Virus record (IMG/VR): IMGVR_UViG_3300042261_000976
Span: 68,627-114,058 of that record
DNA: 45,432 nucleotides
Origin: a virus
Direction: 5' to 3' (one strand)
Made by a program: the position numbers and the translations under genes. Below the pieces are notes generated by a model. That model saw only the letters and a program-made list of their open reading frames with translations, did no database searches and had not been told where the DNA came from. This document shows positions 104 to 38,976 of this stretch, piece by piece. Every line of letters starts with the position of its first letter. Within the stretch, counting starts at the first letter, position 1.

Positions 104-3100
104 ATGAAAGTATTTAATATAAATGATAATTATTTCAAATATCAAAAATGTTTGTCTGGAATTACATATCAATATGTTAATGAATTAGATGACATATACG
201 CCAAAAATCTTATGGTTGGCACTAATTATTGTTTATATTGTATGTATAACGAGTTTGACATCATAAATAACTTTATGGTGAACTTATATCAAGTGGACGT
301 TTGTAGCACTTTAAATTTGGATTTAACTAAAAGATATTTTGATATAGACGGTGTTTCTCTAAGAACAGGACACAGAGTAATTCTTGTTGGTCAAACAGAT
401 AAAACACAGAACGATATTTATAATGTTGATTCTAGAGGATACCTTATATTATCAGACGAATTGGCTGACACTGGAAAAACTTGGAGATATAAAGCCTATG
501 TTAAATTAGGAGGAAATAAAAGTAAACAATTTCACTTAAAAAATTCAGGTAATAGATTTCCATTGAAGGGCGAAAAAAAGGAATTTTTAGAGGGTCATGG
601 TTATATTATAAAGAGCATATTTAATTACAATTTATTTTACGATGGACCTGTAAATCCAAAATTGATTTTTACTGATTATGAACTGGCTAGAATATCAGTT
701 AATAAAAACTACGAATTATACGATGGTTTCTATTTACCACTATTTATCACTGGTGATACTATTGATATTAAATATCATAACAGTGATTATATAATAAAAG
801 TAGATAATAATAATTCTAAATACATTTATACTGGGGTTACTTTAAGAAATACTGTTCTAAACACTGGAAGTACGGATATGTGGGGAAATTACGGTTATGA
901 AACATTCATAAAAACTAATTCCACTATATGTTCAAACGCTAATGTTTACGATTATGTAAAATTCGAGATATCTGGCAATACAAGCTTATATCTAAAAACT
1001 TTTATAAAAAGAATAGATGATCCTTATATAATCATATCAGATTATATATCTGATAATATCTTAAATGATTATTATTCGCCTAATATATCTGGTGCTAGTT
1101 ATTATAACACAACAATCGATGATTTAACTTATCCAACTTCAGGATTATGGCTAACACAAACATATGATACTTTCTTACCATATCAAGGAGGGGAATGGGT
1201 ACTACTTGAGTCTGGCGCAACTTGGTATTTGACAGGACAGGTTATTTCATATACTGGTAATACTGGTGATATTCTTATAAATATAACATATTCCAGTGTT
1301 CCTATCGGAACTAATTTTCATTGGGTTGTATCTTTAATAAGTGAACCTACTTATTATAGTTTTACTAATTTGATGTATTCTGATATTATGGATGTTGAAA
1401 ATACAATTTTAGAATCATATTATTCTAAATATTTCGATATTGATGGGGCTGGAAAATTATACCCAGCAGAAAATCTTGATAATTTATATTTTGATTATGA
1501 TGGATTAACATTCTATTTTAATACTACAGGACAATCTTTTACTACAACAAATGATTATATAAAATACAATTTATATAATCATCTCAATAAAATAAATCCA
1601 TATTTATTTGATACCGGATATACTTTTTTGATTGATAAACAATTAAATGCGATTACTTTTACTTATGAATATTTCGATGAAAGACCAAACCCTTATATTT
1701 ATCCTAATACTATAGGTGATAGCAAAGGAACGCTTATAAAGATAATACCTTATATTTCAAGTTATGTGAATTATTTTAAAAATCACACATATGTTGCTTT
1801 GAGTGATAATACAGGAGAATATAAATCTCTTATAGTAGATCTTGTTCCAAATGAATATTTTGTCGTAGAAACATATAAATCCAATACAGGATTAACTCTT
1901 AATTATATAAAAACAATATACAATTTAAAAGAAATATCAGATATTCTTTATGATGTTTATATAAACGAAGAAAACTCATATTACAGAGTGAGAGATGACG
2001 ATATGAGAAGAAATATATGTAATGGTTACGCTTCATTTATAAGCGAGGATTTAGGAATAATAGATAATACGACCGCTTTTTTAATGCAAGATCCACAACA
2101 TAAATTCGTTCTTAAAATATACGATCCCGAGAACTCCTATAATGGTGGTGTCGTAAGATCTCCTTATGTTATAACTAGACTTGATATAACTATTCCTACA
2201 GGTGGTACTTCAGCCATATTAAAGGGTGAAGTTATGAATGATGGGGGATCAAATATAACAGAGAGAGGAATTTGTTATTCTCCAGACTCTATTAACTTTA
2301 CATGTGTTTCAGCAACGACTTTAGGATTAGGACCTTATACATGCAATATTTATCCTCTAACTCCATTATATACCTATTACTATAAAGCTTATGCTAAAAA
2401 TATTCAAGGAATTGGGTATGGCGAATTATATACTTTTACTACTTCCGATCCAAATTATACAGCTCCAACAATAACTACAGACTATGTAGTTCCATATTCT
2501 CATAAATTAACACCATATGCTGATATTGTAGATATTGGATGGCTTCCTATACTAGAGAGAGGATTTATATATCAAACAGGAATAACTACACCCACTTTGA
2601 TAGATGATTTAGTTATTGTATATCTTCCAGAAAATGGTCAAACTGGTAGTTTTTATACTGATTTGACTGGGCTTACACATTCTACAATGTATTCTATAAA
2701 TAGTTACGCTATAAATATTTGCGGCACAACTTATGGGGATACTTATCATTTAGAAACATTATATCCTTCTCCTCCTGTTATAAATACAGTAGGATATACT
2801 AATGTTACATACAATAGCATGGATGTTATATGCAATTTAATAAGTAATGACGGAGAACTAACAGATCCAATTCACGGAGTAAACCAGATGGGGGTTGTTT
2901 ATTCGAATGATCCTGTTAATTTACCAACAACAGGAAATACTGTAAGACCTTATACTCCTATATCATTCGGACAATTTATAGTAAATTTAACTGGTTTAAC
3001 TTATAGTCAAAATTATTATATTAGAGCATACGCTATGAATACTTTATATTCCGGAAACACAACCGTTTATGGTACTATGATTTTTCCACCTCCTGCAACA

Positions 3101-5023
3101 TTACCTTTGCCAGTGGCTCCTACTTTAACCAATAGTCTTTATAACTATTCAACTTATTATGCTAATGTATCAAATATATTATCATCAAATGGTGGTTCTC
3201 CCATAGTTTCTTTAGGATTATACTACGCGACCGGGGACACTGTAACGACTTCAGATACATTTTTATCAGCTAGTGGAACTACTAGTTGGATGAGTAATTT
3301 AACAGGGCTAACTGATTCTACTAAATATAGTTATATGGCTGAAGCTGTCAATTTATATGGATTGAGTGGTTATACTACAGTTACAGGATTTACTACATTA
3401 CCAATTCAAACAGCCCCAACAGGAGTAACATTAAATTGGATAACAGCTACACCTACTGGGGCAACTTTAACAGGTAATGCTATATTTGATGGGTATTCTC
3501 CAATAATAAATAAAGGAATTTTATATTCCACCTCTCCATCTCCAACTACTCCAGTTTGGAGCGGTGGATCTGGAACAGGTATGTGGACATCAAGTATAAC
3601 TGGATTAACAGTAAGTACGACTTATTATGCTAGGGCTTATGCTACTAATTCTATAGGAACAACTTATAGTAGTCCTGATGTTACATTTACAACACCATCT
3701 GGAAATTTACCACCATCTTTCAGTATAACTAGTCATACTGTAGGTGGAATATCTACTACAACAGCTACTGTAACAGCAAACATTTTAAGCGATGGCGGAG
3801 CGACAGTAACGGATAGAGGTATATGTTTCGGTTTAGTGACGCCATCAACTTGTTGGAATGGTGGGACAGGTGCTGGTATATATTCAGTTATATTGTCAGG
3901 ATTAACTTTAGGAACTACATATTATGTCAAAGCATATGCTACAAATTCAGAAGGAACTACATATACATCAACTATTAGTTTTAATACTTCATCTATGGTT
4001 GTACCAACTGTTACATTAGATAGTGTAAGTGATATAACTTTGACTGGAGTCACATTGAATAGTAATGTAGTTAGTGATGGATATTCTCCAGTTATTGCTA
4101 GAGGATGTTTAGTAGATGATGGAGTAACTCCAGTTTACTGGCCGAACGGAACAGGAACAGGAGTATTTGTTACTGCAATAACAGGATTAACTCAAAACAC
4201 ATCTTATACTGGGATTTCATATGCTGAAAATTCTATAGGCACTGCTTGGAGTGATTATAAATATTTTAACACTTTAGTAGAAAATGACGTGTCTGTATCT
4301 GTAGATATATTGAGCGCATCTTCGGCTAGTCCTTATTTATATCAGGTAGGAGATTCTAAAAATGATTTAATTGTAAAAGTAGAAATAACAACAATAAATG
4401 AACCTCCATCAAATCTATTTGATGGTGATGCTACTTTTACGTCTGGTATTACTGTTATGACATGGGGAAGTGGAGTTAAAACAATAAATAATTCAGCTAG
4501 TCCTTTTACTTATGCTCCTCTAACAACTGAAACTAAATATTTCATAGCTAATGAAAATTGTGGAGTACCAACAGAATCTAGAACAGGTTCAGTAAGAATA
4601 GATGCTGTATATCCATATCTAACTTGCAATCGTTCTGTTAGCAATCCTATGCCGCCATCTAATTCTACTATGGCAACTTGGTGTAGTAGTGGAAGTTTCT
4701 ATACTGGAATGTTCCCATTAGGAAACGAACCGATGTTAAAGAAAATAGAACTGCCTTCTTCAAGTAAAACATATAATTATTATATTTCTAATAATAAGAA
4801 TGTGATATATTTCGCTTGTAAAGCTGATCAAACTGTCACTTCTTTATCTATTGTAAATTCTTTAGGACAAGAAATTAAGAAGCCTTGGAATGAAGTAGTG
4901 CAATGGTTAAGTTATTCTATGTCATCTTCTGGTTTAGCAAATAATTGGAATGTGCCTTATAATATTTATGGATTTATGGTCACTAATAATTTAGGTTCAA
5001 TATATGTAACATATAATTTTTAA
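104..5023 (+). CDS. Giant (1639 aa) structural protein carrying many tandem FN3/Ig-like beta-sandwich repeats; likely virion surface, fibre or decoration protein
   Basis: Repeated ~90-aa units with the signature ...DGG..I(T/L)(D/E)RG(I/F)C(Y/F/W)S...G.G.(Y/F)...(I/L)(T/S)GL...T.YY.(R/K)AYA.N..G..Y(G/S), which matches the FN3 F-strand pattern Y.F.V.A.N..G.S. S/T/G/Y/N-rich composition typical of phage fibre or adhesin proteins. The ATG at 104 begins a 4.9 kb uninterrupted frame. Confidence 0.5.
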   Translation: MKVFNINDNYFKYQKCLSGITYQYVNELDDIYAKNLMVGTNYCLYCMYNEFDIINNFMVNLYQVDVCSTLNLDLTKRYFDIDGVSLRTGHRVILVGQTDKTQNDIYNVDSRGYLILSDELADTGKTWRYKAYVKLGGNKSKQFHLKNSGNRFPLKGEKKEFLEGHGYIIKSIFNYNLFYDGPVNPKLIFTDYELARISVNKNYELYDGFYLPLFITGDTIDIKYHNSDYIIKVDNNNSKYIYTGVTLRNTVLNTGSTDMWGNYGYETFIKTNSTICSNANVYDYVKFEISGNTSLYLKTFIKRIDDPYIIISDYISDNILNDYYSPNISGASYYNTTIDDLTYPTSGLWLTQTYDTFLPYQGGEWVLLESGATWYLTGQVISYTGNTGDILINITYSSVPIGTNFHWVVSLISEPTYYSFTNLMYSDIMDVENTILESYYSKYFDIDGAGKLYPAENLDNLYFDYDGLTFYFNTTGQSFTTTNDYIKYNLYNHLNKINPYLFDTGYTFLIDKQLNAITFTYEYFDERPNPYIYPNTIGDSKGTLIKIIPYISSYVNYFKNHTYVALSDNTGEYKSLIVDLVPNEYFVVETYKSNTGLTLNYIKTIYNLKEISDILYDVYINEENSYYRVRDDDMRRNICNGYASFISEDLGIIDNTTAFLMQDPQHKFVLKIYDPENSYNGGVVRSPYVITRLDITIPTGGTSAILKGEVMNDGGSNITERGICYSPDSINFTCVSATTLGLGPYTCNIYPLTPLYTYYYKAYAKNIQGIGYGELYTFTTSDPNYTAPTITTDYVVPYSHKLTPYADIVDIGWLPILERGFIYQTGITTPTLIDDLVIVYLPENGQTGSFYTDLTGLTHSTMYSINSYAINICGTTYGDTYHLETLYPSPPVINTVGYTNVTYNSMDVICNLISNDGELTDPIHGVNQMGVVYSNDPVNLPTTGNTVRPYTPISFGQFIVNLTGLTYSQNYYIRAYAMNTLYSGNTTVYGTMIFPPPATLPLPVAPTLTNSLYNYSTYYANVSNILSSNGGSPIVSLGLYYATGDTVTTSDTFLSASGTTSWMSNLTGLTDSTKYSYMAEAVNLYGLSGYTTVTGFTTLPIQTAPTGVTLNWITATPTGATLTGNAIFDGYSPIINKGILYSTSPSPTTPVWSGGSGTGMWTSSITGLTVSTTYYARAYATNSIGTTYSSPDVTFTTPSGNLPPSFSITSHTVGGISTTTATVTANILSDGGATVTDRGICFGLVTPSTCWNGGTGAGIYSVILSGLTLGTTYYVKAYATNSEGTTYTSTISFNTSSMVVPTVTLDSVSDITLTGVTLNSNVVSDGYSPVIARGCLVDDGVTPVYWPNGTGTGVFVTAITGLTQNTSYTGISYAENSIGTAWSDYKYFNTLVENDVSVSVDILSASSASPYLYQVGDSKNDLIVKVEITTINEPPSNLFDGDATFTSGITVMTWGSGVKTINNSASPFTYAPLTTETKYFIANENCGVPTESRTGSVRIDAVYPYLTCNRSVSNPMPPSNSTMATWCSSGSFYTGMFPLGNEPMLKKIELPSSSKTYNYYISNNKNVIYFACKADQTVTSLSIVNSLGQEIKKPWNEVVQWLSYSMSSSGLANNWNVPYNIYGFMVTNNLGSIYVTYNF

Positions 5024-5038
5024 AATAAATGAAGATAA

Positions 5039-5698
5039 ATGGATTCAAAATTAAAATTTAAGCCAATAGAACTTTTAGATATAGGAATAGATAAATTAAC
5101 AAAAATTCCAATTCCTATATTGAACGATAATATTATATCTACTTTCGATATGGAAAATGGTGTGCCCACGGATTCTTTTATTCTTACTTATGATGCTTCA
5201 TCTGGATACACATTCCAGATGACTTTAACTTCCAGTGATACGATATTATTATCTTTAGATTATGGAGATGGAAGTACTGGAAGTTTTTTAATATCAACAG
5301 GAGGAACTCCAGTAACACACACATATCTAAGCGCTATAACATATACAATAACAGCGTCAGGGTGGTTAGAAAAAATTACAAATTTTATTTGCTTAAATGG
5401 TATTACACACGTAGAAATAAATAACATTAAAAAATTAAATTATTTAGATTTATCTAATAACCATTTAACTAAATTAAATTTAGACGGAATGATATACTTA
5501 AATTTTATAAATTTGGAAGACAATTATTTATCAAATGATGAAGTGGACGATATATATATAGTAGCAGATACATTTTTAACTTTTGCTGGGTATATAAATA
5601 CGGTTGGCACGAATAATGGAAAACCTTCTGTATATTCAGAAGCGTCTAGGGAAGATCTTGATTTGAATAAGAATTGGACGTTATCTTATAACTCCTAA
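5039..5698 (+). CDS. Leucine-rich-repeat (LRR) protein, possibly structural or host-interaction
   Basis: C-terminal half reads ITNFICLNGITHVEINNIKKLNYLDLSNNHLTKLNLDGMIYLNFINLEDNYLSN, i.e. tandem LxxLxLxxNxL units. It sits tightly between two FN3-repeat structural genes and has a TAAATG start context. Confidence 0.45.
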   Translation: MDSKLKFKPIELLDIGIDKLTKIPIPILNDNIISTFDMENGVPTDSFILTYDASSGYTFQMTLTSSDTILLSLDYGDGSTGSFLISTGGTPVTHTYLSAITYTITASGWLEKITNFICLNGITHVEINNIKKLNYLDLSNNHLTKLNLDGMIYLNFINLEDNYLSNDEVDDIYIVADTFLTFAGYINTVGTNNGKPSVYSEASREDLDLNKNWTLSYNS

Positions 5699-5713
5699 AA
5701 AATATATAAATAA

Positions 5714-8897: not shown

Positions 8898-8945
8898 AAT
8901 TAAAAAAAAAAATTAATATATAACGAAAAATTTAATTTTGCAAAA

Positions 8946-9983
8946 ATGGATAATTATATACTAAAGTATGGAAACTACAAGATAAATGAAGGCAAGGAAT
9001 CTATTGAATTTCCTTTGTTTATATCTAATAAGCTAAGAAAGATATTACAAAAGATAATAACAGAACCCATAGCTAAAAAACTTCTAGAAACTAAAAATTC
9101 TATAGATATATCTTGGATAGATGCAGATCCAGATAGTAAAAGTGTATCTTATTTTCCATTAGACAGAATAAATAGAATAACATCAGATGCTCCAATTGAA
9201 ACAACATTAGAATTGTTAGCAAAATATTGGCCAACAAATCCTCCAGATGATTCAGATTTATGGAAAAGTAAATATAGACAAAGCATGTCTTGGGGAAAAT
9301 TAATTAATAAATTATTCCCTAATGAATTTTCAAACATGGACATCGATCGTTTCTATAATAGATATCGCCCGGAAATTGATGCAAGCAAAGGAGATGAAAG
9401 ATTTGAAGTAGTTCACGGCGACGATATTCGTTACTGGTATCATGAAGATAGATATAACGGAGGTTTGGGTTCTTGTATGAGACATAGCTCTTGTCAGAAC
9501 TATTTTGGTATATACACAAATAACCCTGACAAATGTGGGCTTTTAATATATCATGATGATGTTAAAAGTAAACTAATATTAGGTAGGGGTCTTGTGTGGC
9601 AAGGTTTATTAAAACCAAGCGGTGATACTCAAGAAAATAAAGAACAATATACATTATTAGATAGAGTGTATGTAGTTAGTGGAAGACCTGATCTAGAAAA
9701 TATATTTCATAAATATGCTATAGATCACGATTGGATATATAAAAAGAATAATGAATCATTTTTAATGAATGGAGTTAGAAAAACAACTTCAGTATCAATA
9801 CGTTTAAAACCAGTAGAGTATAAACAATATCCTTATATGGATACAATGATTTATTATACTCCAGCTACTGGAAGGGCGGCTTCATCTCCTGGAAATCCAG
9901 GAAGAGATCCTAATAATCCTTCTAAAATGTTTCAAAGATATACATTAAGGAGTCAGCATGGAGGAGCAGACGCTGTAAGATAA
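8946..9983 (+). CDS. Tandem paralog family member 1 (unknown function; CTS-like N-terminus)
   Basis: Shares conserved blocks with the next three ORFs: GRQ.MS.GKLINKLF, G(E/D)DIRYWY, GSCM(R/K), NP(E/D)KCGLLI, GRALVW, MDR(I/V)Y, LKP.EYKQYPYMDT, TGR(L/A)AS. N-terminus MDNYILKYGNYKINE resembles T4 CTS MKTYQEFIAE. Confidence 0.55.
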   Translation: MDNYILKYGNYKINEGKESIEFPLFISNKLRKILQKIITEPIAKKLLETKNSIDISWIDADPDSKSVSYFPLDRINRITSDAPIETTLELLAKYWPTNPPDDSDLWKSKYRQSMSWGKLINKLFPNEFSNMDIDRFYNRYRPEIDASKGDERFEVVHGDDIRYWYHEDRYNGGLGSCMRHSSCQNYFGIYTNNPDKCGLLIYHDDVKSKLILGRGLVWQGLLKPSGDTQENKEQYTLLDRVYVVSGRPDLENIFHKYAIDHDWIYKKNNESFLMNGVRKTTSVSIRLKPVEYKQYPYMDTMIYYTPATGRAASSPGNPGRDPNNPSKMFQRYTLRSQHGGADAVR

Positions 9984-10000
9984 AAAAAAAAATAAAAACA

Positions 10001-11059
10001 ATGACTAACGTTGCACCTTACTTGAATTTTATAAACGAAGACATAGATCCTATGACCGGTGAAGAGAAGAAACCAACTTTTGTAAAAGGAGAAAAGAAAC
10101 TTTTAAAATTATTCATATCTCCAAAATTAAGAGAAATTCTTGGTAAAATGTTAAAGGTTGGGGATTTCCAAGTTAAAGCAGTAGCCAATAGAATAATGGG
10201 ACTTTCAGAAACAGATGAGCTTTTTGATATATCTTATCTAGATGTAGAAAAAGGAAAAGATGACAGCATAACTTATATGCCAGCTAACAGAGTATGGTAT
10301 AAGAAAAATTTTGCAAGTCAAGAAGAAGCCAATAGAGTACCAAGCCCTGATGATGAATCATGGACTGGATCTGGCAGACAAAGTTTATCTATTGGTAAAT
10401 TAATCAATAGATTATTTGATAATTTCACAGACTTGTCTGTTCAAAAGTTTGTTAACGCTTATAAGGCTGAAATAGCAGCAACATTAATTTATAATAGATT
10501 TCAAGTGGTTAGAGGTGAGGATATTAGATATTGGTATAGTGAAAAACGTTTAGCTTCAACAGACGGTAATCTTGGTGGTTCTTGTATGAAATATGACAAT
10601 TCACAAAGAAATTGTCAGCCTTATTTTGAAATTTATGTTCAAAATCCAGAAAAGTGTGGTTTAGTTATATTAACAAATACAGATAATAAATTAATAGGAA
10701 GAGCTTTATTGTGGTCAGATTTAAGAAAACCAACAGGTAAAATTTTTATGGATAGAATTTATACTATAAAACAGTCTGACGAAGAATTGTTTAAAAAGTA
10801 CGCAGTGGAAAACGGATGGCTACATAAAGCAAGACAAGAAGCTCATAACGCCGCTTATGTTGAAGATGGTCAAGTAGTAAACAAATCAATAGCTTTACAG
10901 TTGAAACCAAAACAATATAAACAATATCCTTATATGGACACATTAAAATTCTATAATCCTGGTACAGGAAGATTAGCATCAGATCCTGGTAATCCAGTAC
11001 CTGGAATGCATAGATATAGATTAGAAAACGCAGACGGACAATCTCAAAGAATTGATTAA
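10001..11059 (+). CDS. Tandem paralog family member 2
   Basis: Same conserved blocks: MPANRV, GRQSLSIGKLINRLF, VVRGEDIRYWY, GGSCMKY, NPEKCGLVIL, GRALLW, MDRIYT, LKPKQYKQYPYMDT, TGRLAS. N-terminus MTNVAPYLNFINED (Y..FI.E, CTS-like). Confidence 0.55.
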   Translation: MTNVAPYLNFINEDIDPMTGEEKKPTFVKGEKKLLKLFISPKLREILGKMLKVGDFQVKAVANRIMGLSETDELFDISYLDVEKGKDDSITYMPANRVWYKKNFASQEEANRVPSPDDESWTGSGRQSLSIGKLINRLFDNFTDLSVQKFVNAYKAEIAATLIYNRFQVVRGEDIRYWYSEKRLASTDGNLGGSCMKYDNSQRNCQPYFEIYVQNPEKCGLVILTNTDNKLIGRALLWSDLRKPTGKIFMDRIYTIKQSDEELFKKYAVENGWLHKARQEAHNAAYVEDGQVVNKSIALQLKPKQYKQYPYMDTLKFYNPGTGRLASDPGNPVPGMHRYRLENADGQSQRID

Positions 11060-11074
11060 AAAAATATATAAAAA

Positions 11075-12166
11075 GTGGGAATTAAAAATTATACAGGTTA
11101 CATACTAAATGAGCAAGAGATTAACTTAAAAGATTCTCTTATGTTCTTTTCTCCGAAGTTTATATCTTTAATAAAAAAGATAAATTCTCCAATAACTAAG
11201 GATCTTATGGATTTATTGGACAATAGAGAATCAAGATTTCCTTTTTCTTATATAAATTTAAATGATGATATAGATTTTATAAGTGTAATGCCAGCAAATA
11301 GAATTGGTAGAATAGAAGGAATTACCCAGAAAGATTTAGAAAATCCGGATCCTAATAGTCCTGTATGGAACGAAAAGGGAAGACAAGTAATGAGGATAGG
11401 TGCTTTTGTAACTAGACTATTTCCAAAATATGCTGGCACAAAAGATCTAGAGAATTTTGTACAACAAATAAAAGGTATTCGTGATGCTGAAAATTATACT
11501 ATTAGATTAGTAAGAGGCGAAGAATTAAGAGCTTGGTATCACGTTAAAACATATTATAATCCTCATCCAGGAATGGAAGATCCTCCTGAAGATGAAGGTG
11601 TGATGGATATAAGAACGCCATTGATGAAATCATGTTTGAAACAACCAGAGAAACAACATTTCTTTGATATGTATGTTGAAAATCCAGATAAAGTTGGACT
11701 ATTAATAATGACAAATACAGATAATAAATTAGTTTGTAGAGCTCTTGTTTGGTTTGATGTATATATGGTAGATAATCCACAAAATCCCACAAAGGGCACT
11801 ATAATGGATAGAATATATTATACTCAAGAATCAGATGTGCATATATTTATAAATTACGCTAAAGAACATGGATGGTGGTATAAAACAAATCAAGCTAAGG
11901 GATGTGAAACTTATGTTGTTAATGGTCAAGTAATGGACAAACCATTAAGAACACAATTACCACATCATAGAATGTTTGCAAAATTCCCTTATATGGATAC
12001 ATTTTGTTATTATTCGCCAGATACAGGAAGATTAGCATCAACTAGAGGAAAACCAGCCAAGAATATGACTGGAAAGACTATAGGAGAATGCCCAGCAGGA
12101 AACTTTTTTGATAGATACTTATTACAGAAGGCCAATGGTGGTTTCAAAAAATTGCTTCCTAAATAA
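11075..12166 (+). CDS. Tandem paralog family member 3 (most diverged)
   Basis: MPANRI, GRQVMRIGAFVTRLF, LVRGEELRAWY, KSCLK, NPDKVGLLIM, CRALVW, MDRIYYT, FAKFPYMDT, TGRLAS. N-terminus MGIKNYTGYILNEQE. Confidence 0.55.
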   Translation: MGIKNYTGYILNEQEINLKDSLMFFSPKFISLIKKINSPITKDLMDLLDNRESRFPFSYINLNDDIDFISVMPANRIGRIEGITQKDLENPDPNSPVWNEKGRQVMRIGAFVTRLFPKYAGTKDLENFVQQIKGIRDAENYTIRLVRGEELRAWYHVKTYYNPHPGMEDPPEDEGVMDIRTPLMKSCLKQPEKQHFFDMYVENPDKVGLLIMTNTDNKLVCRALVWFDVYMVDNPQNPTKGTIMDRIYYTQESDVHIFINYAKEHGWWYKTNQAKGCETYVVNGQVMDKPLRTQLPHHRMFAKFPYMDTFCYYSPDTGRLASTRGKPAKNMTGKTIGECPAGNFFDRYLLQKANGGFKKLLPK

Positions 12167-12180
12167 TAAACTAAAGATAA

Positions 12181-13122
12181 ATGATTATCTATAATTATAA
12201 CAGTTTTCTAAATGAAGCAAAAGAAGTAGTTTTAGATATTTCTGATAAATTACAGAAAGTTCTAAAATCCATGAAGGATCCTATAGCAGAGGCTATATTA
12301 AAAGTATCAGTACACGGTGATACACCAGGAGTTTATGATATAGCCTATTTAGATTATTTCGACGAGAAAGATAAAAATGATAAAATTTCTTTCCTTCCAG
12401 CCAATAAAATAAGTCCTGATCTAGTTGGGGATCCTTTTAAGGCAAAGGGCAGACAAGAGATGTCAGTTGGTAGAATTGTAAATAAATTATTTCCAGAAAA
12501 ATTCACTCAACCACAAATAGAAGCTTTTGTTAATGACTTTAAGGCATCCTTGAAAAAATTCTTTATAAATTTACAATTGGTTCAGGGTGAAGAAATAAGG
12601 TATTGGTATTTAGAAACACGTTATGCTTCAAGAGCAGGTGATATTAATAGTTCGTGTATGAGAGGTCAAAAAGCTCAAACATTTTTTGATATTTATTGTA
12701 ATAATCCAGAAAAATGTAAATTGCTAATATTAAAAAATGATGACAATTTATTAATGGGTAGAGCTTTAGTTTGGTTTGAAATGCGTAAACCAACCGGGAG
12801 AGTTTATATGGATAGAATTTACACAATAAACGACGCAGATAAAAAATTATACATAGACCACGCTATAGCAAATAATTGGTTATATAAGAATAAACAAGTA
12901 ATGCATGATGCTTCTTATATAGATAATGGAAAACTAGTTTATAGTTCAGTAGCTATTCAATTAAAACCAGTGGAATATAAACAATATCCGTCTCTGGATA
13001 CTTTGAGTTATTATACTCCAAGCACAGGCAGATTGGGAAGTAACGCTGGAAATTATGTTCCAGGACATCCACGTTATCAATTAAATAGCACCACTGGAGG
13101 AGCAGCAAAAATAGATAGATAA
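12181..13122 (+). CDS. Tandem paralog family member 4
   Basis: LPANKI, GRQEMSVGRIVNKLF, LVQGEEIRYWY, SSCMRG, NPEKCKLLIL, GRALVWF, MDRIYT, LKPVEYKQYPSLDT, TGRLGS. N-terminus MIIYNYNSFLNEAKE (Y..FLNE). Confidence 0.55.
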   Translation: MIIYNYNSFLNEAKEVVLDISDKLQKVLKSMKDPIAEAILKVSVHGDTPGVYDIAYLDYFDEKDKNDKISFLPANKISPDLVGDPFKAKGRQEMSVGRIVNKLFPEKFTQPQIEAFVNDFKASLKKFFINLQLVQGEEIRYWYLETRYASRAGDINSSCMRGQKAQTFFDIYCNNPEKCKLLILKNDDNLLMGRALVWFEMRKPTGRVYMDRIYTINDADKKLYIDHAIANNWLYKNKQVMHDASYIDNGKLVYSSVAIQLKPVEYKQYPSLDTLSYYTPSTGRLGSNAGNYVPGHPRYQLNSTTGGAAKIDR

Positions 13123-13466: not shown

Positions 13467-13706
13467 ATGACTGCCACAGATAACGTTTTTTATATTTTTA
13501 TCGAAGAACAAGGCGAAAAATGCGTTATTAAAATCGTTCAAAACTTCGAATGGTTCGTTATGATCATTAGCGGGAATGAACCAACTGATTTAGAATATTC
13601 CTATTCTAATAAATTCATTATTGACGATATCATAGACGATCTCAGAAACAAATACGATTATGTCGAAGAAATTTCTTTCAACGATATCGACGATTACATG
13701 TCCTAA
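13467..13706 (+). CDS. Hypothetical small acidic protein (79 aa)
   Basis: ATG start and acidic C-terminus (DDIIDDLRNKYDYVEEISFNDIDDYMS). A fully overlapping antisense ORF (13590..13895) was judged spurious. Confidence 0.3.
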   Translation: MTATDNVFYIFIEEQGEKCVIKIVQNFEWFVMIISGNEPTDLEYSYSNKFIIDDIIDDLRNKYDYVEEISFNDIDDYMS

Positions 13707-16623: not shown

Positions 16624-17382
16624 ATGACAGAAACATTCGCGACATATTGTTACGCATTAATGGGTCAATACAATAATAACATGAAAAAATTGGCCGATGA
16701 TTCTACTGAAATGATATTTAATTTAGTTTTAAAAAATCCAAATTTACAAATCAGAAGACCTAAAAATTATATCATAACTATAGGCAAATTTTATATCATT
16801 CAATATGATTATAATGGTAATAAAATATGGTGTCCTATTCTTGTTATAGATGATAGATATAATACAGAATTACAAAAAAGAATTTTATACGCTGTAAATT
16901 TCGATTACCTACCTTATAGATATAAAATACTTTTTATTGATAAACTATTTTCGATGTTTAAAACAGAAATACAAAAACATAAAGAAAATAATGATAAAGG
17001 AAATCTTGTTGATGAAGAAAATCCATTAAAAATTAATTTTGAATCAGTATATAAAACACTAAAAACTAATGGCGGATTTAATTATTGTATAACAGCTTTC
17101 GATTATACTAAGATAGTTGGTATAAAACTTGGAGATCCTAAAATATATGCTGTTTCTACTACTATAGTAAATAGATTAATTTTCATAGATACAAAAATAA
17201 TCAATAAGAGAGTTATGATGGATGCTCTAAAAGAAACAGACATAGAAATAGAAAAAGAAAAGTTATCTAAAATTTTAGAGGCTTATGAGAAAACGGCTTT
17301 TGATTATGAAAATGATGTTAAGGAATATTATGAACAACTTCGACAATTAGAAAACCATTATAAAATATATGAAAATCAATAA
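16624..17382 (+). CDS. Hypothetical protein (252 aa)
   Basis: Start 4 nt after the previous stop. No recognisable motif. By position (just upstream of the portal) it could be neck or head-associated, but this is unsupported by sequence. Confidence 0.3.
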   Translation: MTETFATYCYALMGQYNNNMKKLADDSTEMIFNLVLKNPNLQIRRPKNYIITIGKFYIIQYDYNGNKIWCPILVIDDRYNTELQKRILYAVNFDYLPYRYKILFIDKLFSMFKTEIQKHKENNDKGNLVDEENPLKINFESVYKTLKTNGGFNYCITAFDYTKIVGIKLGDPKIYAVSTTIVNRLIFIDTKIINKRVMMDALKETDIEIEKEKLSKILEAYEKTAFDYENDVKEYYEQLRQLENHYKIYENQ

Positions 17383-17419
17383 AAACATTTTTGACATAAA
17401 AGATTTTATATATAGATAC

Positions 17420-17686
17420 ATGAAAACTTTTGAACAATTTGAAATTGATCCTTATGGTGAAGAAAATTGGAACGAAAAACAACCAAGATATGAAATTGGA
17501 GATGGAATAAGAATTAATGGATTGTTTCTAAGAATTTCTAGTTATAGAATGAGAGATGATGGTTATTACTGGTATGATTTAGAAGATGAAAGAAACTATA
17601 TAAGTAGAAGAGAGGATGTATTGAATCATATTAAACATCCTGAATGGTCGATTCAGAAATGTCTTAACCCATCAATAGAGGATTAA
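17420..17686 (+). CDS. Small protein with CTS-like N-terminus immediately followed by the DPYGEENW motif; candidate internal head protein
   Basis: The track ORF starts at 17369 and overlaps the upstream gene. The internal ATG at 17420 gives MKTFEQFEIDPYGEENW..., closely matching the T4 capsid-targeting sequence MKTYQEFIAE, and removes the overlap. Confidence 0.4.
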   Translation: MKTFEQFEIDPYGEENWNEKQPRYEIGDGIRINGLFLRISSYRMRDDGYYWYDLEDERNYISRREDVLNHIKHPEWSIQKCLNPSIED

Positions 17687-19568: not shown

Positions 19569-19638
19569 TTCAGTTCCAAAATGGAAAAAAAAGAGTTTTT
19601 TAGGTTAATATATATCAATAAAATAAAAGAGCCTAAAC

Positions 19639-22113
19639 ATGTATTATAAAAATGTTTTAATCATTGAAAATTCAACAAATGGCTTAAAAAAACTAAACGA
19701 ATCCATAGCTCCTTCCGGTAAAAAGCAATATATACTGGGCGGTATTTTCACGGAATTTAACGTTAAAAATAGGAATGATAGGATTTATCAAGCGGATAGA
19801 TTTTTGCCACATTTGGATGAATTGTTAGAAAGAAAAAAGACTCTGGGTGTTATATATGGTGAATTTGATCACCCGGATGTTTTTGACACTAGTTTGTCTA
19901 GGGTATCTCATACGGTTGAAAAGTGTTTCTTTGTCAGAGAAAAAAATAGAGTAGATGGTGAAATTAGATTACTAAATACTCATTGGGGTAGAGAAGCACA
20001 AGCATTAATCGATGATGGATGCCCAATTTTTGTTTCTTCACGTGCCGCCGGTGTAACTGAGTCGAATGGTGAAGTAACTATTAAAAAACTATTTACATAC
20101 GACGCAGTTGCTGACCCTGGGTTTAGTTCTGCGAAAATGGAACTTCGCACCTTAAATGAATCGCTAGGATTTAACGAGAGTGCCAACTTTAGGATATATG
20201 ATATATCCGACGAGTCAAAAATAAACGAGTTGTTCAATATGGATAAAAATGAATTTGTAACCAAAGAACAGATGGAAAAGTACTCAAATTATTTGACCGA
20301 GCAAATCACAAAAACAAAAAGTGAAATTAATGAAGCCATCCAAAAGGGAGACTTCGATCCAGCAAAGTTATCTGATTTATATGACAAGTATGATTCCTTC
20401 CAGGAAGGCTTCAAGAAAATAGCTTCCTATCTTGACTACTTAGCAGAAACAATGCAAGTCTTAGTCCAAGAAAACAAAAAAATCAAGAAAACAAACGAAA
20501 AATTAGAAGGCAAATTAGATAGAACAAAAGCTAAAACAGAAAAAATTATTGAACATAATGACTATTTAGCTGGAGAACTTGAAAAAGCCATCGGGTACAC
20601 AGAAAAAGCCATCGGGTACACAGAATATGTAGCTGAAGCAGTTGACAAATCTATTGATTATTCAAATTACATAGCTGAGACATTAGATAAATCTATTGAT
20701 TTCTCTGAATATATCGCAGAAAACGTTGATAATACAATTAAATATTCTGAATATATCGCTGAAAATCTTGATAAATCTATTGACTATTCTGAGTATGTTG
20801 CAGAAAATCTAGAAAAGAATATCGCATATGCTGAATATATTGCAGAGCATGTTGATAATAACATCAAATATGCTGAATATATCGCTGAACATGTCGACAA
20901 TAATATTAAATATGCTGAATATATAGCAGAACACGTCGATAACAGTATCAAATATACAGAATATGTTGGAGAACAATTAGATAACAGTATTAAGTATTCA
21001 GAATACATTGCTGAAAATCTAACTGATTCTATTGCCTATGGTAATTACTTAGCAGAAGCAATTGACAAGAATGTTGAGTACGGTAAGTATCTCGCAGAAA
21101 AATTAAATAGTGGTTCATTTGGAAGATTAAACGAACAAGTACAACCACCAGCACAAAAAATGGGTAACTTCAAGACCGATTCAGTAGCCAAATACTATGA
21201 TGAAAATGAGAACGATATGACTCAAGCACAACCAGTACAGGGAGCTCAAGCACAAGGTGCACAACCAAGAATGGCTCAACCAGTACAAGGTCAAGCTCAA
21301 CCAAGAGCCCAAGCCCAAGCTCAACAAGTACAGGGTATGGATTTAGAAGGTGAAGAAAGTGAGGATATGGATGTTCAAGGAGTAAATGCTGAAGAAATTC
21401 AAGACATTGATGATAAGGCAGAACTCACTCCAGGTCAAGTTGTCAAGATTGATGACGACAAAACAGGTGAAATTTTAGCAGTTAATGCTGATAATGGAAT
21501 AGCTGTTGTTAAATTATCTGACACAGGTGAAGTCCAAGAGATTCAAGAATCCAGATTATCTATCATAGGTGATAAGATTTATGAATCAGAAAACACATTA
21601 AAGAAACTAATATTAAAGCAAATAAATGAGTCCAAAAAACGTGAGGCATCGAAAGATAACGAACCTCATTTCTTACTTTTCTTAACTGAAAAGAAAAAGG
21701 CTGCTTATTACAACCTTTCACAACAGGATAAAGAAAAAGTAATCGTTGCAATGAACGAAAGCAAAGGTTATACAACAGAAAGTGAAGTTCTCGCTATCAT
21801 GGCTAAAGCATTAACTACAGCCACAAGAAGTTTTAATGAGACGTTGATCGACAATATCCCAGGCGATCTAAGACCAATATGGGAAAGTTTACGTCCCGAG
21901 GTTCAAGGTAGTATTATAAATAGTGCGCAATTCTATACTAATTTGACAGAGGATAAAATGGAAAGTTTCTGGAATTCTAGAGACCTTCATAAATATGCAA
22001 AGAAAAACATGGGTAAAGTGACCTTGTTAACAGAAAGTAATAACAAATTTGATAACACTAAACTCTCTGATGATCTTGTAGATGCATATTTAAAAAGAAT
22101 TAATCAAAGATAA
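19639..22113 (+). CDS. Prohead protease (T4 gp21-like, N-terminal ~200 aa) fused to a long scaffold/core-like C-terminal extension
   Basis: GGIFTEFNVKNRNDRIYQ vs T4 gp21 EGIFLQAEVVNRNKRLYP; GEFDHP vs GELNHP (catalytic His); FVSSRAAGV vs GVSSRGLG (catalytic Ser). The C-terminal 600 aa hold coiled-coil tandem repeats (EYIAENVDNSIKYSEY, ~10 copies), a Q/A-rich tract and an acidic region, i.e. a gp22/scaffold-like character. Confidence 0.75.
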   Translation: MYYKNVLIIENSTNGLKKLNESIAPSGKKQYILGGIFTEFNVKNRNDRIYQADRFLPHLDELLERKKTLGVIYGEFDHPDVFDTSLSRVSHTVEKCFFVREKNRVDGEIRLLNTHWGREAQALIDDGCPIFVSSRAAGVTESNGEVTIKKLFTYDAVADPGFSSAKMELRTLNESLGFNESANFRIYDISDESKINELFNMDKNEFVTKEQMEKYSNYLTEQITKTKSEINEAIQKGDFDPAKLSDLYDKYDSFQEGFKKIASYLDYLAETMQVLVQENKKIKKTNEKLEGKLDRTKAKTEKIIEHNDYLAGELEKAIGYTEKAIGYTEYVAEAVDKSIDYSNYIAETLDKSIDFSEYIAENVDNTIKYSEYIAENLDKSIDYSEYVAENLEKNIAYAEYIAEHVDNNIKYAEYIAEHVDNNIKYAEYIAEHVDNSIKYTEYVGEQLDNSIKYSEYIAENLTDSIAYGNYLAEAIDKNVEYGKYLAEKLNSGSFGRLNEQVQPPAQKMGNFKTDSVAKYYDENENDMTQAQPVQGAQAQGAQPRMAQPVQGQAQPRAQAQAQQVQGMDLEGEESEDMDVQGVNAEEIQDIDDKAELTPGQVVKIDDDKTGEILAVNADNGIAVVKLSDTGEVQEIQESRLSIIGDKIYESENTLKKLILKQINESKKREASKDNEPHFLLFLTEKKKAAYYNLSQQDKEKVIVAMNESKGYTTESEVLAIMAKALTTATRSFNETLIDNIPGDLRPIWESLRPEVQGSIINSAQFYTNLTEDKMESFWNSRDLHKYAKKNMGKVTLLTESNNKFDNTKLSDDLVDAYLKRINQR
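20560..21070 (+). repeat. In-frame tandem repeats inside the protease-scaffold gene (2 x 21 bp, then ~10 x 48 bp)
   Basis: GAAAAAGCCATCGGGTACACA x2, followed by repeated units of the form GAATATATCGCAGAAAACGTTGATAATACAATTAAATATTCT encoding (S/A)EYIAE(N/H)(V/L)D(N/K)(S/N)I(K/D)Y. Confidence 0.75.
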
Positions 22114-22190
22114 ATTATCTATTCGACAAGCATTTTGGAAAAAAATGACTTTTTAAACCGAATATATAATTAAAAAAAAATTAGAAAAAA

Positions 22191-23975
22191 ATGAATTTTA
22201 TAGTTGACAGTGCGAAAGCAATAAAGAAATGGCAACCTATTCTCGACGCTCTTAGGGTAACTGATGATGACAAGAGAGCTTGGATGTCAGAGTATGCTGA
22301 AATGCATCAAATGAATGAAAATGTTGGCTATGCCACATTAAATCAAAAAGGTATGGGTCAAGTATTTGCTCCAGTAGTAGGTACAGTTCCAGGTGCAACA
22401 TGGCAAGATGGTCATGGCGCAATTGGTAGCGGTGACGTTGCTCAAAACCTCCTTCCAGTAGCTATGAAGATCGCTGCTCAAACAATCGGTTTGGATTTAG
22501 TAGCTGTTAAACCAACAGCATCACCAAGAATCGAGTTGTTATTCGTTGACTTCAAATATGACAACGCTTATGCAAACGATCCTAATCGTGAAGATATCGA
22601 TCCAAGACAAAGACCACTTGTTTTCAAATTAGCCACAAGCACAAGTGCTGGTGATTTAGCTTTAAAACAAGCTCTTCAATTACAACTCAGTCTTTTGAGT
22701 ATTCAAGAAAGAGTTGGTGGATTATCAAAAAGAACATGGGTTCACTTAGGAGCTGGTTGTACAGTTGCTCAATTAACTAATTTACCAGACAATTTACCAG
22801 CCGCTGGTTACTACAATTTTATGGAATTCTTAGGATTTTCAAGAATTGATGGACACCCAATGTATAGAATTTACAGACAAGCCGGTTTCTCAGTTGGTTC
22901 AATGACACCACAAGACGGTTCTGCATGGGATTCTACATTAAACACTTTCCCACAAACAGGAGCTATCACAGACGTTCTTATCGCAAGTGGTATTACCACA
23001 GTATCAGGAACATCAACATCTCAAGTCACAGGAAACACAGCAGCTGCTGGTGCAACTGTTGAATTAGTATCCTTACTCGAAGATCATATTCCAGGATTCT
23101 CCGCAGGTTGGACATCCAATATGGAAAATGGTTGGGAAGGCCCAATGACAAGATACCAAGATGAAAAAACCTATCCAGGTGTTATCGGTCCTGACGTATT
23201 TACAAAATCCGTCCAAGTTGGTGACATCGAAATCTCCTCAACATTGAAGAGAACCCAAATTGAAGACATCAAGGCTTCAACTGGTATGGATATTGTTCAG
23301 AAATTGGAAGGTGTTCTTATTAATGAATTAACTCAGGTTATTTCTAAGGAAATCGTAGGTAAAATCAGAAAATTAGCTCTTGCTAATAGAGATTCCTACA
23401 CAGCACCAAAAGCAACTGACGGTGTTACATGTAAATTCGACTTAAACGTTGACTCTTACATCGCATCACTTTCAAGTGGTACTTATGGTGGAGCAATGGG
23501 TGAAACAACTCACTCAATCCAAAGAAAGCTTATTGCTAAGATCAATAACGCTTCTAACTTCATCGCAACTGATGGTAGAATTGGACCAGCTCAATATTTG
23601 GTTACAAACGGTAACTTAGCTTCCGTTATCCAAGATATCGCTGGTTATACGATCAATCCAGTTAACGCTGGTAAATTAAACACCAACGGTCAACTTTATC
23701 CAATGGGTAATGTTGGACAGATTGCAATCTATGTAGATCCTTACATGAGATGGGATGATAACTTCATCTATATGGGTAGAAAGAATAGCGTTGACCAACC
23801 AGGTCTTCTCTTTATTCCTTACTTAATGGCTCAATCAATTAGCTTAATCAGTGAAGCTACCTGGGCACCCAGGATGTTAATTAGATCAAGATATGCAGTA
23901 GCTGATATCGGATTCTTCCCGGAAAAGCAATTCATGGCAATTAAAGTTACTGATAGTAACGGTGTTCTTATCTAA
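22191..23975 (+). CDS. Major capsid protein (T4 gp23-like, HK97-fold lineage)
   Basis: AKAIKKWQPILDAL vs T4 gp23 AELLNKWKPLLEG; AMKIAAQTIGLDLVAVKPTASPRIELLFV vs VRRAIPNLIAFDICGVQPMNSPTGQVFAL. Likely maturation cleavage at QMNE|NVGY, analogous to T4 FLTE|AEIGG. Followed by the strongest terminator in the window. Confidence 0.85.
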   Translation: MNFIVDSAKAIKKWQPILDALRVTDDDKRAWMSEYAEMHQMNENVGYATLNQKGMGQVFAPVVGTVPGATWQDGHGAIGSGDVAQNLLPVAMKIAAQTIGLDLVAVKPTASPRIELLFVDFKYDNAYANDPNREDIDPRQRPLVFKLATSTSAGDLALKQALQLQLSLLSIQERVGGLSKRTWVHLGAGCTVAQLTNLPDNLPAAGYYNFMEFLGFSRIDGHPMYRIYRQAGFSVGSMTPQDGSAWDSTLNTFPQTGAITDVLIASGITTVSGTSTSQVTGNTAAAGATVELVSLLEDHIPGFSAGWTSNMENGWEGPMTRYQDEKTYPGVIGPDVFTKSVQVGDIEISSTLKRTQIEDIKASTGMDIVQKLEGVLINELTQVISKEIVGKIRKLALANRDSYTAPKATDGVTCKFDLNVDSYIASLSSGTYGGAMGETTHSIQRKLIAKINNASNFIATDGRIGPAQYLVTNGNLASVIQDIAGYTINPVNAGKLNTNGQLYPMGNVGQIAIYVDPYMRWDDNFIYMGRKNSVDQPGLLFIPYLMAQSISLISEATWAPRMLIRSRYAVADIGFFPEKQFMAIKVTDSNGVLI

Positions 23976-24003
23976 TAGTTTGACTATTGGAATACAAAAA
24001 AAA

Positions 24004-24030
24004 GACCTCCATTGGAGGTCTTTTTTTTTT
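24004..24030 (+). terminator. Rho-independent terminator after the MCP gene
   Basis: GACCTCC-ATT-GGAGGTC followed by TTTTTTTTTT. Preceded by an A-run, so it could act in both directions. Confidence 0.8.
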
Positions 24031-24082
24031 ATGATTAAACTATAAATCAAATTATTAATATATAATAAAAAGAATTTATCAT

Positions 24083-24412
24083 ATGAATAACTTGAAGAGA
24101 TATAGAGAAATAAATGAGGATGTTGAAGAAAATAAATTCGTAAAATTTAATGGTAGGGATTCGTTTTCTAGAACTATCGAAGTAAAATCAGAAGATGCCA
24201 AAAACCAAAAGTTCCAAGACGAACTCAGTTACGCTATAGGTCTTATTAAAGAACATATAGAAGATGGTTTAGGTTATCAAATGAAAAAGAAATACAAAAT
24301 TAAAAATATGACTTTCAACGTAGACGATAAAGGAAAAGAATATTGTAAGATAGAATTCTTAGATACGAATACAAACGATATTGATCCTTACGGTGAAGAA
24401 GATTGGAGATAA
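24083..24412 (+). CDS. Small protein ending in the DPYGEEDW motif
   Basis: C-terminus is ...NDIDPYGEEDWR*. N-terminus MNNLKRYREINE parallels MNNLKTYEEF of ORF 38640..38975. A TATAAATC late-promoter-like motif lies ~40 nt upstream (24041..24048). Confidence 0.35.
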   Translation: MNNLKRYREINEDVEENKFVKFNGRDSFSRTIEVKSEDAKNQKFQDELSYAIGLIKEHIEDGLGYQMKKKYKIKNMTFNVDDKGKEYCKIEFLDTNTNDIDPYGEEDWR

Positions 24413-24421
24413 ATGACAATT

Positions 24422-24850
24422 TTAAATCATTCTGAATGTTCTATTTTCATTGACAGGCCATAAATATTTATAATCATTGAACCCATCATCATTTGGAAAT
24501 TTTGGTAGATAAAAAATTCTATCTTTTTCTATGAGTCTACTACGCATAGCTCTATGAAAATTTTCATTACCTAACCACCACGGATAATCATAATTGTCAT
24601 CGTATATAATATAGTGCATGTTATTCACATAACCACGTTTAATCCATTCTACTATCATAGCATTATGGTACTCCGCTAAAGCGCCCATATATCCTGCCCA
24701 CATTTTTACCGCGGGATGATTTTTCCAACGTGTAGGGTTTATTAGACAATTATATATTTGATAAGCCTCGACTCTCTGCTTGCCCAATCTCCTATAGTCT
24801 AATACTTCGGCTGATAATTTGAAATCAGCGTATGGAAGAAAAGTCTGCAT
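24422..24850 (-). CDS. Pyrimidine-dimer DNA glycosylase (T4 denV / endonuclease V family)-like
   Basis: N-terminus MQTFLPYADFKLSAEVLDYRRLGKQRVE fits the Pyr_excise pattern (T4 denV: [25 protein letters not shown]). MIVEWIKRGY matches LIAECLKRGF. Confidence 0.45.
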   Translation of the reverse strand: MQTFLPYADFKLSAEVLDYRRLGKQRVEAYQIYNCLINPTRWKNHPAVKMWAGYMGALAEYHNAMIVEWIKRGYVNNMHYIIYDDNYDYPWWLGNENFHRAMRSRLIEKDRIFYLPKFPNDDGFNDYKYLWPVNENRTFRMI

Positions 24851-25227: not shown

Positions 25228-25310
25228 CTTGCAAAAATACAAAATTATTTTATATTAGAAAAATTTTCGTTAATTTTGTATTCCAATTTTAGAAATTAAT
25301 ATATAGAAAT

Positions 25311-36211: not shown

Positions 36212-36366
36212 TTATATAAAGTATTTTTTTAACATAGCTTTTGCTTTATAATCATTAACGCTAGATTTGCAGTTATGTTTATTATAAAGATGACCTATTT
36301 TATAATTAATAGAATCACAAACTTCTTCACCACATTCTAAACATTTAGTTTTAGGACATTTTTATA

Positions 36367-37143: not shown

Positions 37144-37170
37144 GTCGTGATGTTTATTTTTTACTATATA

Positions 37171-38624: not shown

Positions 38625-38639
38625 TTTTTTTATAAATTT

Positions 38640-38975: not shown

Positions 38976-38976
38976 C

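Follow-up and report, generated by a model that had tools for sequence, protein, structure and literature searches.

Four consecutive genes in a stretch of viral DNA of 45,432 nucleotides (IMG/VR record IMGVR_UViG_3300042261_000976, positions 68,627 to 114,058; the whole stretch is hereafter the window) encode members of one protein family, and each of the four proteins starts with a short leader that resembles the capsid-targeting sequence (CTS) of phage T4. The leader is a modular element that recurs genome-wide on unrelated proteins and is tied to a prohead protease-scaffold protein and to late-type promoters, and we have little doubt about this characterisation. On a reading to which we assign a probability of roughly 0.55, the four genes are anciently duplicated family members placed behind this leader, and their products would be late, capsid-targeted cargo trimmed by the protease.

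The CTS of T4, MKTYQEFIAE, is a propeptide of 10-20 amino acids that is removed by gp21, and the T4 internal proteins are basic (PMC8442874); prohead proteases of the T4 type all cleave after Glu (PMC5694885). A preliminary description of this DNA had read Y-x-x-[FY]-[IL]-N-E at the start of all four window proteins. The [IL]-N-E portion is present in 4/4, ending at residue 12-15, and the exact Y-x-x-[FY]-[IL]-x-E spacing, as in T4, is confined to paralogs 2 and 4. Paralog 2 begins with the canonical leader MTNVAPYLNFINE (10001-10039, + strand; predicted cleavage after E13, mature N-terminus D14), which is followed by an acidic and lysine-rich linker up to about residue 30. Paralog 4 has the canonical MIIYNYNSFLNE and then an A (12181-12216, +; predicted cleavage after E12, mature N-terminus A13). 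The leader of paralog 1 is degenerate (MDNYILKYGNYKINE; 8946-8990, +; predicted cleavage after E15, mature N-terminus G16), and that of paralog 3 is MGIKNYTGYILNE (11075-11113, +; predicted cleavage after E13, mature N-terminus Q14); the counterpart of paralog 3 in the related genome LR756503.1 has a canonical FNGYVYE. After such cleavage the mature proteins are predicted to be basic (34-41 kDa, isoelectric point 8.7-9.0; for paralog 1, 38 kDa and 8.7). The resemblance to the T4 CTS that the preliminary description had proposed thus stands, and it is strengthened by genome-wide sharing of the leader, by a scaffold repeat, by association with a promoter-like element and by the small residue that follows the Glu.

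Among 264 sequences of the family, 124 carry [YFW]xx[FYW][ILVM]xE near the N-terminus, its Glu no further in than residue 30 and almost always at residues 9-15; the internal rate of this motif is 3.4e-4 per residue. Because a leader shared within one family could be a matter of simple homology, unrelated proteins were tested for it. When every 9-mer of the window proteins was scored against the T4 CTS core KTYQEFIAE, the top matches were a repeat inside the protease open reading frame (ORF) and several N-termini of unrelated ORFs, among them MNNLKTYEEF at 38640, MSKKLKTYKTFENE at 38977 and MIKKFDAFVNE at 36367. Over its entire length the window shows synteny with the 54-97 kb region of LR756503.1, a genome of 735,411 bp reported to be the largest of any phage, which belongs to the Mahaphage clade and has a predicted Bacteroidetes host (PMC7162821). 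In a set of 954 ORF-based genes of that genome, 52 have the motif at the N-terminus, where the internal rate predicts 4.0 (13-fold, p 3e-39), and a BLOSUM scan with the T4 CTS (score of at least 18) returned 58 genes against 6.8 expected, only 3-7 of which are in the family. Permuting the position classes of the motif placed the real arrangement 1st of 420, with 45 non-family genes (median 3, 95th percentile 8); second came [ILVM]xx[YFW]Ex[YFW] ("LKTYEEF"), which corresponds to the leader's other half. Either of the two leader patterns starts 87 of the 954 genes (about 9%; examples are MIKKYIQFINEAS, MVKRYKQFINEG and MENMLKYQEFINEAK), and the consensus is (M)-x3-6-[YF]-x-x-[FY]-[ILV]-x-E, of 12-15 residues. 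The same pipeline returned 4 of 217 genes in T4, two being IPII and IPIII; 0 of 99 in crAss001, a Bacteroides phage with 35% GC; and 4 of 56 and 7 of 61 genes in two distant megaphages.

The leader behaves as a module. Without it, the 87 leader-bearing proteins of LR756503.1 fall into 72 unrelated BLAST clusters, the largest of which (10 members) is the family of the array. In 53% of cases the leader Glu is followed by A, S or G (background 18%), and codons at the conserved leader positions vary synonymously, so that the conservation is at the protein level. Some LR756503.1 family members begin at the first helix of the fold and lack the leader, others carry it before a different N-domain of about 110 residues, and leader-bearing and leaderless paralogs adjoin in tandem clusters. 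This arrangement suggests that one enzyme family exists in both a packaged and a non-packaged form, encoded side by side. Family homologs in cultured phages that are not T4-like have no leader. Most of the 20 largest non-family leader proteins of LR756503.1 are without a Pfam domain. Those with one include a PPK2 (152222-153436, +; a 165-residue N-terminal extension comes first), a nucleotidyltransferase of the Pol-beta type (457823-459457, -), a TPM-domain phosphatase (2878-5112, -) and one glutamyl-tRNA synthetase, which may be a false positive; the PPK2, nucleotidyltransferase and phosphatase would be candidate injected enzymes if the leader targets the capsid. On a more general reading, to which we give somewhat less than even odds, megaphages of the Mahaphage clade use a T4-like capsid-targeting leader on some 70-90 genes from more than 70 unrelated families (about 9% of the proteome), with the array's family as the most frequent cargo.

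The preliminary description had placed a gp21-like protease near the four genes, and a T4-type protease gene does lie at 19639-22113 (+). It encodes a protease-scaffold fusion of 824 amino acids, in which an N-terminal protease of the S77/S80 type (Peptidase_S80, 25.7 bits with a cut-off of 23.4; S77, 23.1 bits, which is below its cut-off; phrog_207, E 1.6e-29) is joined to a repeat-rich extension that is coiled-coil-like. Inside this ORF, about 12 tandem units of 14 residues (I-K-Y-S-E-Y-I-A-E-N-L-D-K-S; IKYSEYIAENLDKS) span 20611-21099 (+) and are encoded by a 42-nucleotide DNA repeat. Each unit holds Y-x-E-Y-[IV]-A-E, which is the pattern of the leaders and almost the T4 CTS core YQEFIAE. 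The units are the top matches both of the T4-CTS scan and of a position-specific scoring matrix trained on the family, and of the 72 internal motif copies in the LR756503.1 proteome, 14 belong to the ortholog, at a strict spacing of 14 residues. The repeat suggests that the leader mimics a unit of the scaffold. Cleavage after Glu would break the scaffold into 14-mers, and we consider it somewhat more likely than not that the leaders are cleaved by the same enzyme. A Q/A/P-rich stretch of low complexity follows the repeats. Internal copies of the motif also occur elsewhere in LR756503.1: a protein of 1,691 residues (21458-26533, -) has 7 copies, spaced by about 58-61 residues, and one of 207 residues (619760-620383, +) has 3 copies at 14-residue spacing and may be scaffold-like.

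Leader genes share an upstream element in which AATATATA[G/A] comes after a T-rich run; it lies about 12 or about 28-32 nucleotides before the ATG. In LR756503.1 it is found at 30 of the 31 leader genes that have spacers of at least 40 nucleotides, against 138 of 350 other genes (39%; p 8.5e-11). It precedes the orthologs of the major capsid protein (MCP) and large terminase, and it is found upstream of none of 14 T4-type genes for replication and nucleotide metabolism, 10 of which have spacers of at least 50 nucleotides. In the window, the element reads AATATATAA at 8915-8923 (+), after an A/T-rich run and 31 nucleotides upstream of paralog 1, and a second copy of AATATATAA lies at 11063-11071 (+), 12 nucleotides upstream of paralog 3. 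It also stands before the MCP gene (-30), the protease ORF (-32, at 19607) and several other leader genes. These positions are consistent with a class of late promoter, as judged from few genes. Scanned more loosely as AATATATA[G/A/T], the element occurs on the + strand at 5701, 8915, 11063, 13439, 13735, 17405-17415, 19607, 22161, 24057 and 25298 and on the - strand at 29097, 37172 and 40217, overall 7-47 nucleotides upstream of start codons. The late promoter of T4, TATAAATA, was considered as well; it is not enriched upstream of leader genes, and the window element is distinct from it.

Other ORFs of the window also begin in a CTS-like manner. A run on the - strand at 35783-40210 (ORFs 35783, 36367, 37171, 37635, 38640, 38977 and 39326) encodes small, mostly acidic, D/E-rich proteins of low complexity, all with CTS-like leaders (MIKKFDAFVNE, MISFCEYLKE, MSKRYNKYNKLNE, MNNLKTYEEF, MSKKLKTYKTFENE) and several with the motif DPYGEE immediately behind the leader; by appearance, they could be internal or core proteins of the head. 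Directly after the array, an ORF of 79 residues (13467-13706, +) combines the leader pattern MTATDNVFYIFIEE with an upstream promoter-like element, and its LR756503.1 counterpart, at 67% identity, has MTTIDNIFYIFIDE. For the ORF at 17369-17686 (+), the true start is probably an internal Met at 17420 (MKTFEQFEIDPYGEE...), which gives a near-perfect T4-like leader, abolishes the overlap with the preceding ORF and leaves TTTTATATATAG ending 5 nucleotides upstream of the ATG. Finally, residues 52-60 of a 793-residue protein (26703-29084, -) read KSYKRFLNE, the best non-family match in the window to the family-trained matrix, and may mark either a propeptide of greater length or an additional processing site.

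The array itself consists of four ORFs on the + strand, exactly as the preliminary description had delimited them: paralog 1 at 8946-9983 (345 amino acids), paralog 2 at 10001-11059 (352), paralog 3 at 11075-12166 (363, with a GTG start) and paralog 4 at 12181-13122 (313). The spacers between them are 14-17 nucleotides long and A-rich. No Shine-Dalgarno sequence is present in these spacers and no + strand terminator lies between the four ORFs, where generic terminator scans are uninformative. The LR756503.1 ortholog of paralog 3 (start 64066) also starts with GTG. The first ATG of paralog 3 is at window position 11141, and a start there would drop the leader; automatic annotation is therefore likely to truncate the gene.

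That the four genes are diverged tandem paralogs is clear from pairwise BLASTP (E 1e-40 to 1e-92, identity 29-42%). Their division into a conserved C-terminal domain of about 250 residues and a variable N-terminal third, as at first described, turned out to be imprecise: homology begins at about residue 25-35 and continues to the C-terminus, with the first third as the more diverged part. The motifs listed at that stage do appear in the alignment, save that MPANR is present in only two of the four. The alignment holds RQ, G(E/D)(D/E)(I/L)R.WY, SC(M/L), NP(E/D)K, (G/C)R(A/G)L(V/L)W, (M/L)DR(I/V)Y, (Y/F)P(Y/S)(M/L)DT and TGR. Each paralog has 3-5 Cys residues, and only one of these is invariant. 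An alignment of 55 diverse family members agrees with the earlier assignment of this residue to the SCM/SCL block, where it forms half of an invariant Ser-Cys pair. In paralog 2 the codons for this pair, Ser194-Cys195 (GSCM), are at 10580-10585 (+). The ten invariants of the 55-sequence alignment, in paralog-2 numbering, are Y179, S194, C195, Y212, R234, R252, Y254, P310, D313 and G346. All ten are kept in 4/4 paralogs, so that none of the four looks decayed.

In the window, which has about 30% GC, the array sits between tail-fibre-like genes and a head module of the T4 type. Upstream of it are genes for proteins of 701 and 358 amino acids rich in fn3/Ig domains, and downstream are head-closure and portal genes. 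The virion module of the window as a whole comprises fn3-rich fibre-like proteins, a head-closure protein (phrog_218), a portal (Portal_T4, E 3e-71), the protease ORF and an MCP of the Gp23 type (E 7e-25). The array genes have one-to-one orthologs in LR756503.1, in the same order, at 55, 61, 61 and 54% identity for paralogs 1 to 4, whereas the paralogs are 28-42% identical to one another in this comparison. Given this ordered correspondence, the duplications predate the split of the two phages, and a recent duplication of the array is ruled out. The paralogs evolve faster than the head core (portal 91%, protease 84% and MCP 83% identical) and diverge at about the same rate as the fibre-like neighbours (54-67%). 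On this comparison the array is ancient and stably ordered, though it evolves faster than the head core. The proposal that its expansion reflects an arms race with host defences is not supported in the sense of a recent or ongoing process, as the array is old and stable in order and portal and MCP are themselves only 83-91% identical between the phages. A megablast search of the array DNA against phage genomes gave no match. At the far end of the window (44345-45426, -) are ORFs with highly repetitive translations of the LVGLV/DLVALVEH type, which suggest a repeat-rich gene, possibly read in the wrong frame or strand.

Judged by the sequence searches, the family is very large, phage-restricted and without annotation in the libraries scanned. 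The four paralogs and 55 relatives had no match in Pfam, PHROGs, NCBIfam or PADLOC, including none to any Acetyltransf_* or GNAT model. The four paralogs have no match to PF12699, the family of phiKZ-like head paralogs, nor any Pfam match at E < 1, and a profile search of the PDB found no structure match at the sequence level, only chance matches to antibody light chains. An exhaustive profile search returned 5,777 family representatives at 50% identity; a word-indexed search returned 196 matches. Most members are forms of 450-650 amino acids with a C-terminal extension. The fusion partners in long members were only ankyrin repeats and Cys-rich, zinc-ribbon-like tails and gave no functional clue. 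Only 7 loci were found in 185,579 cellular species genomes, nearly all on short contigs of metagenome-assembled genomes, and we therefore treat the family as phage-restricted. By tblastn, four megaphage genomes of 634-735 kb have 7-15 family places each. A profile search of LR756503.1 found 19 members, which form several tandem clusters and lie mostly outside the structural module; loci include 434121-440763 (-), 452191-455043 (-) and 527304-540159, with singles at 1103, 270396 and 485354. Among cultured phages, the Cellulophaga podoviruses and Thermus phage TSP4 have one copy each.

The fold was predicted with AlphaFold2 for paralog 2 on the 55-sequence alignment (mean predicted local distance difference test score, pLDDT, 91.3; predicted template modelling score 0.79). 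Residues 1-30 are the sole part of low confidence (pLDDT 50-58), and in this model the leader lies outside the predicted fold, with a one-turn helix placed at residues 8-11, on the LNFI motif. The remainder is modelled as an N-terminal alpha/beta subdomain (residues ~38-166; 10112-10498, +) and a GNAT-like alpha/beta domain (residues ~167-352; 10499-11056, +). The latter has the element order beta1-alpha1-alpha2-beta2-beta3-beta4-alpha3-beta5, which is the core topology of GNAT (GCN5-related N-acetyltransferase) enzymes. The invariant Ser-Cys pair falls in the alpha1-alpha2 loop, an invariant Arg on beta3 and the Arg-x-Tyr on beta4. The Q/RxxGxG/A loop for coenzyme A (CoA) between beta4 and alpha3 is absent: paralog 2 reads T-I-K-Q-S-D-E-E there, and Gly-x-Gly occurs in 0/4 paralogs. 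The preliminary description could name no family for the conserved domain and had suggested modelling it. The model supplies a GNAT-like fold and no function beyond that. In the predicted structure, the domain is GNAT-like with a non-canonical active site, and we put the chance that it is an active transferase at clearly less than even. A PcfJ-like identity was set aside, as the matches in BFVD (E ~0.07, probability ~0.15) were too weak to use.

Comparison with known systems places the array closest to IPI, IPII, IPIII and Alt of T4. With slashes marking the cleavage point, MKTYQEFIAE/A of T4 can be set beside YLNFINE/D and SFLNE/A of the array and MENMLKYQEFINE/A of LR756503.1. In both systems the tag ends in [IL]-x-E before a small residue and is all that unrelated cargo proteins share; the portal, MCP and protease nearby are of the T4 type; the scaffold carries the same site (T4 gp22 starts MLKEQLIAE/A); and the mature proteins are basic, as predicted for the array. 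Unlike in T4, the array cargo has no sequence relationship to the internal proteins or Alt, LR756503.1 has about 87 tagged genes from 72 families where T4 has about 4-6, the megaphage scaffold motif recurs 12-14 times in tandem within a fusion to the protease, and the leader is often 3-6 residues off the Met. Giant phages phiKZ, 201phi2-1 and SPN3US have head and ejection paralogs (for example PF12699) with Glu-cut N-terminal propeptides and varying copy number (PMC5694885). The array resembles these as a multi-copy family of a giant phage with, by inference, a T4-related protease that cuts after Glu. Their propeptides, however, are mostly longer than 100 residues and end in A/S/G-x-E, whereas the array leader has the length of that in T4 and the form aromatic-aliphatic-x-E, and the array family has no homology to theirs and comes from the Mahaphage clade with a predicted Bacteroidota host. 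With the GNAT superfamily, the array domain shares the predicted order of elements, and its invariants are located on those elements that in GNAT enzymes border the active-site cleft; it differs in lacking a model match and the pyrophosphate-binding loop, in its invariant Ser-Cys pair, and in adding an N-terminal subdomain of about 130 residues and a beta-rich C-terminal extension. The Dar proteins of phage P1 are loaded into the head during morphogenesis, through ordered incorporation mediated by DarA and Hdf, and are injected and act early. The analogy is one of concept only, as the array has a short shared tag and no known sequence or fold relationship to them.

We envisage the following course of events. 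The array would be transcribed late from promoters of the AATATATA[G/A] type, a class that may be common to the genes for capsid, prohead protease and terminase. The leader, as a mimic of the 14-residue unit in the protease-scaffold, would recruit each paralog into the scaffold core of a T4-type prohead. The S77/S80-type protease would then cut after the Glu of [IL]-N-E, as at the scaffold repeats, and release the leader, and the basic mature proteins of 34-41 kDa would be retained in the head and pass into the cell together with the DNA. There, the GNAT-like domain would probably bind or modify a host target or one associated with nucleic acid, by a transferase-type reaction for which the invariant Ser-Cys, Arg, Arg-x-Tyr and Asp are candidate active-site residues, without a canonical CoA loop. 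Confidence declines along this chain: for loading of the leader-bearing proteins into the head we judge the odds to be slightly better than even, and the suggestion that they are injected and counter host functions is doubtful.

Several observations weigh against the proposal that the four proteins are head cargo. The leaders of paralogs 1 and 3 (YGNYKINE, YTGYILNE) are off-register by one residue. The assignment of the upstream element to late promoters draws on only a few orthologs, and no such element precedes the portal gene of LR756503.1. T4 gp23 is cut at SFLTE/A, and the MCP has no leader-type site aligned with this position, only candidates such as QMNE43. The leader genes are scattered over the whole of LR756503.1, and some encode ordinary-looking enzymes; a cargo of some 70-90 proteins would be unprecedented, so that the tag may serve another late function. 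In cultured podo- and siphoviruses, family members have non-structural neighbours with roles in nucleotide and RNA metabolism, which indicates that the domain is not intrinsically a virion component. In the literature we found neither a virion proteome of the Mahaphage type nor a paper that links megaphages to capsid targeting, and these phages are uncultivated.

Part of this evidence bears on a different account, in which the leader is a genuine tag of late proteins with no role in capsid loading and the paralogs act in the infected cell that produces them. The tag might dock its bearers to some other late structure or chaperone, mark them for regulated Glu-specific proteolysis in the cytoplasm, or be a recombination or 'cassette' handle. 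Its dispersal over about 9% of genes, among them those for PPK2, the nucleotidyltransferase, the TPM phosphatase and a tRNA synthetase, speaks for such an account, as do the non-structural contexts of the family in cultured phages. We nevertheless regard it as rather unlikely, since the leader is nearly identical to the experimentally defined CTS of T4, its motif recurs as the unit of the protease-scaffold repeat, a small residue follows the Glu as at T4 cleavage sites, and the promoter class is common to MCP, protease and terminase genes. Could the likeness to the CTS instead be coincidental, a generic amphipathic first helix in AT-rich genomes, with the paralogs being cytoplasmic GNAT-like enzymes? 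The motif is short, a GC content of about 30% makes K, N, I, Y, F and E abundant, and AlphaFold does place a one-turn helix at residues 8-11. Against this stand the permutation rank, the 13-fold excess of N-terminal over internal occurrences, the clean AT-rich controls (in T4, two of the four genes returned are true CTS proteins), the coexistence of leader-bearing and leaderless paralogs and the association with a specific upstream element, which together make coincidence very improbable. It is also improbable that the paralogs are structural or assembly parts of the tail, neck or fibre apparatus. Their position between fn3/Ig-rich fibre-like genes and head-closure and portal genes, with synteny kept in LR756503.1, and a rate of divergence like that of the fibre-like neighbours would fit such a role. 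The globular GNAT-like fold with its invariant polar, catalytic-looking residues is, however, not a fibre or baseplate fold, the 19 copies in LR756503.1 lie mostly outside the structural module, the homologs in small podo- and siphoviruses occur among genes of nucleotide and RNA metabolism, and a location inside the head is what the CTS-like leader suggests.

All that is known of megaphages of 540-735 kb comes from metagenomes. If the leader does mark proteins for the capsid, the packaged and injected proteome of these uncultivated giants would be readable directly from sequence, and the tag would be the first systematic handle on which of their many proteins of unknown function enter the host at infection. 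Delivered proteins would be the likeliest effectors of anti-defence and host take-over, and the injected arsenal would be an order of magnitude more diverse than that of any characterised phage. The cargo family, which forms over 5,700 clusters at 50% identity and has a predicted GNAT-like fold, represents a large piece of viral dark matter. The CTS mechanism, worked out in a single model phage and applied in biotechnology, would then prove to be ancient and greatly scaled up in giant phages that infect Bacteroidota.

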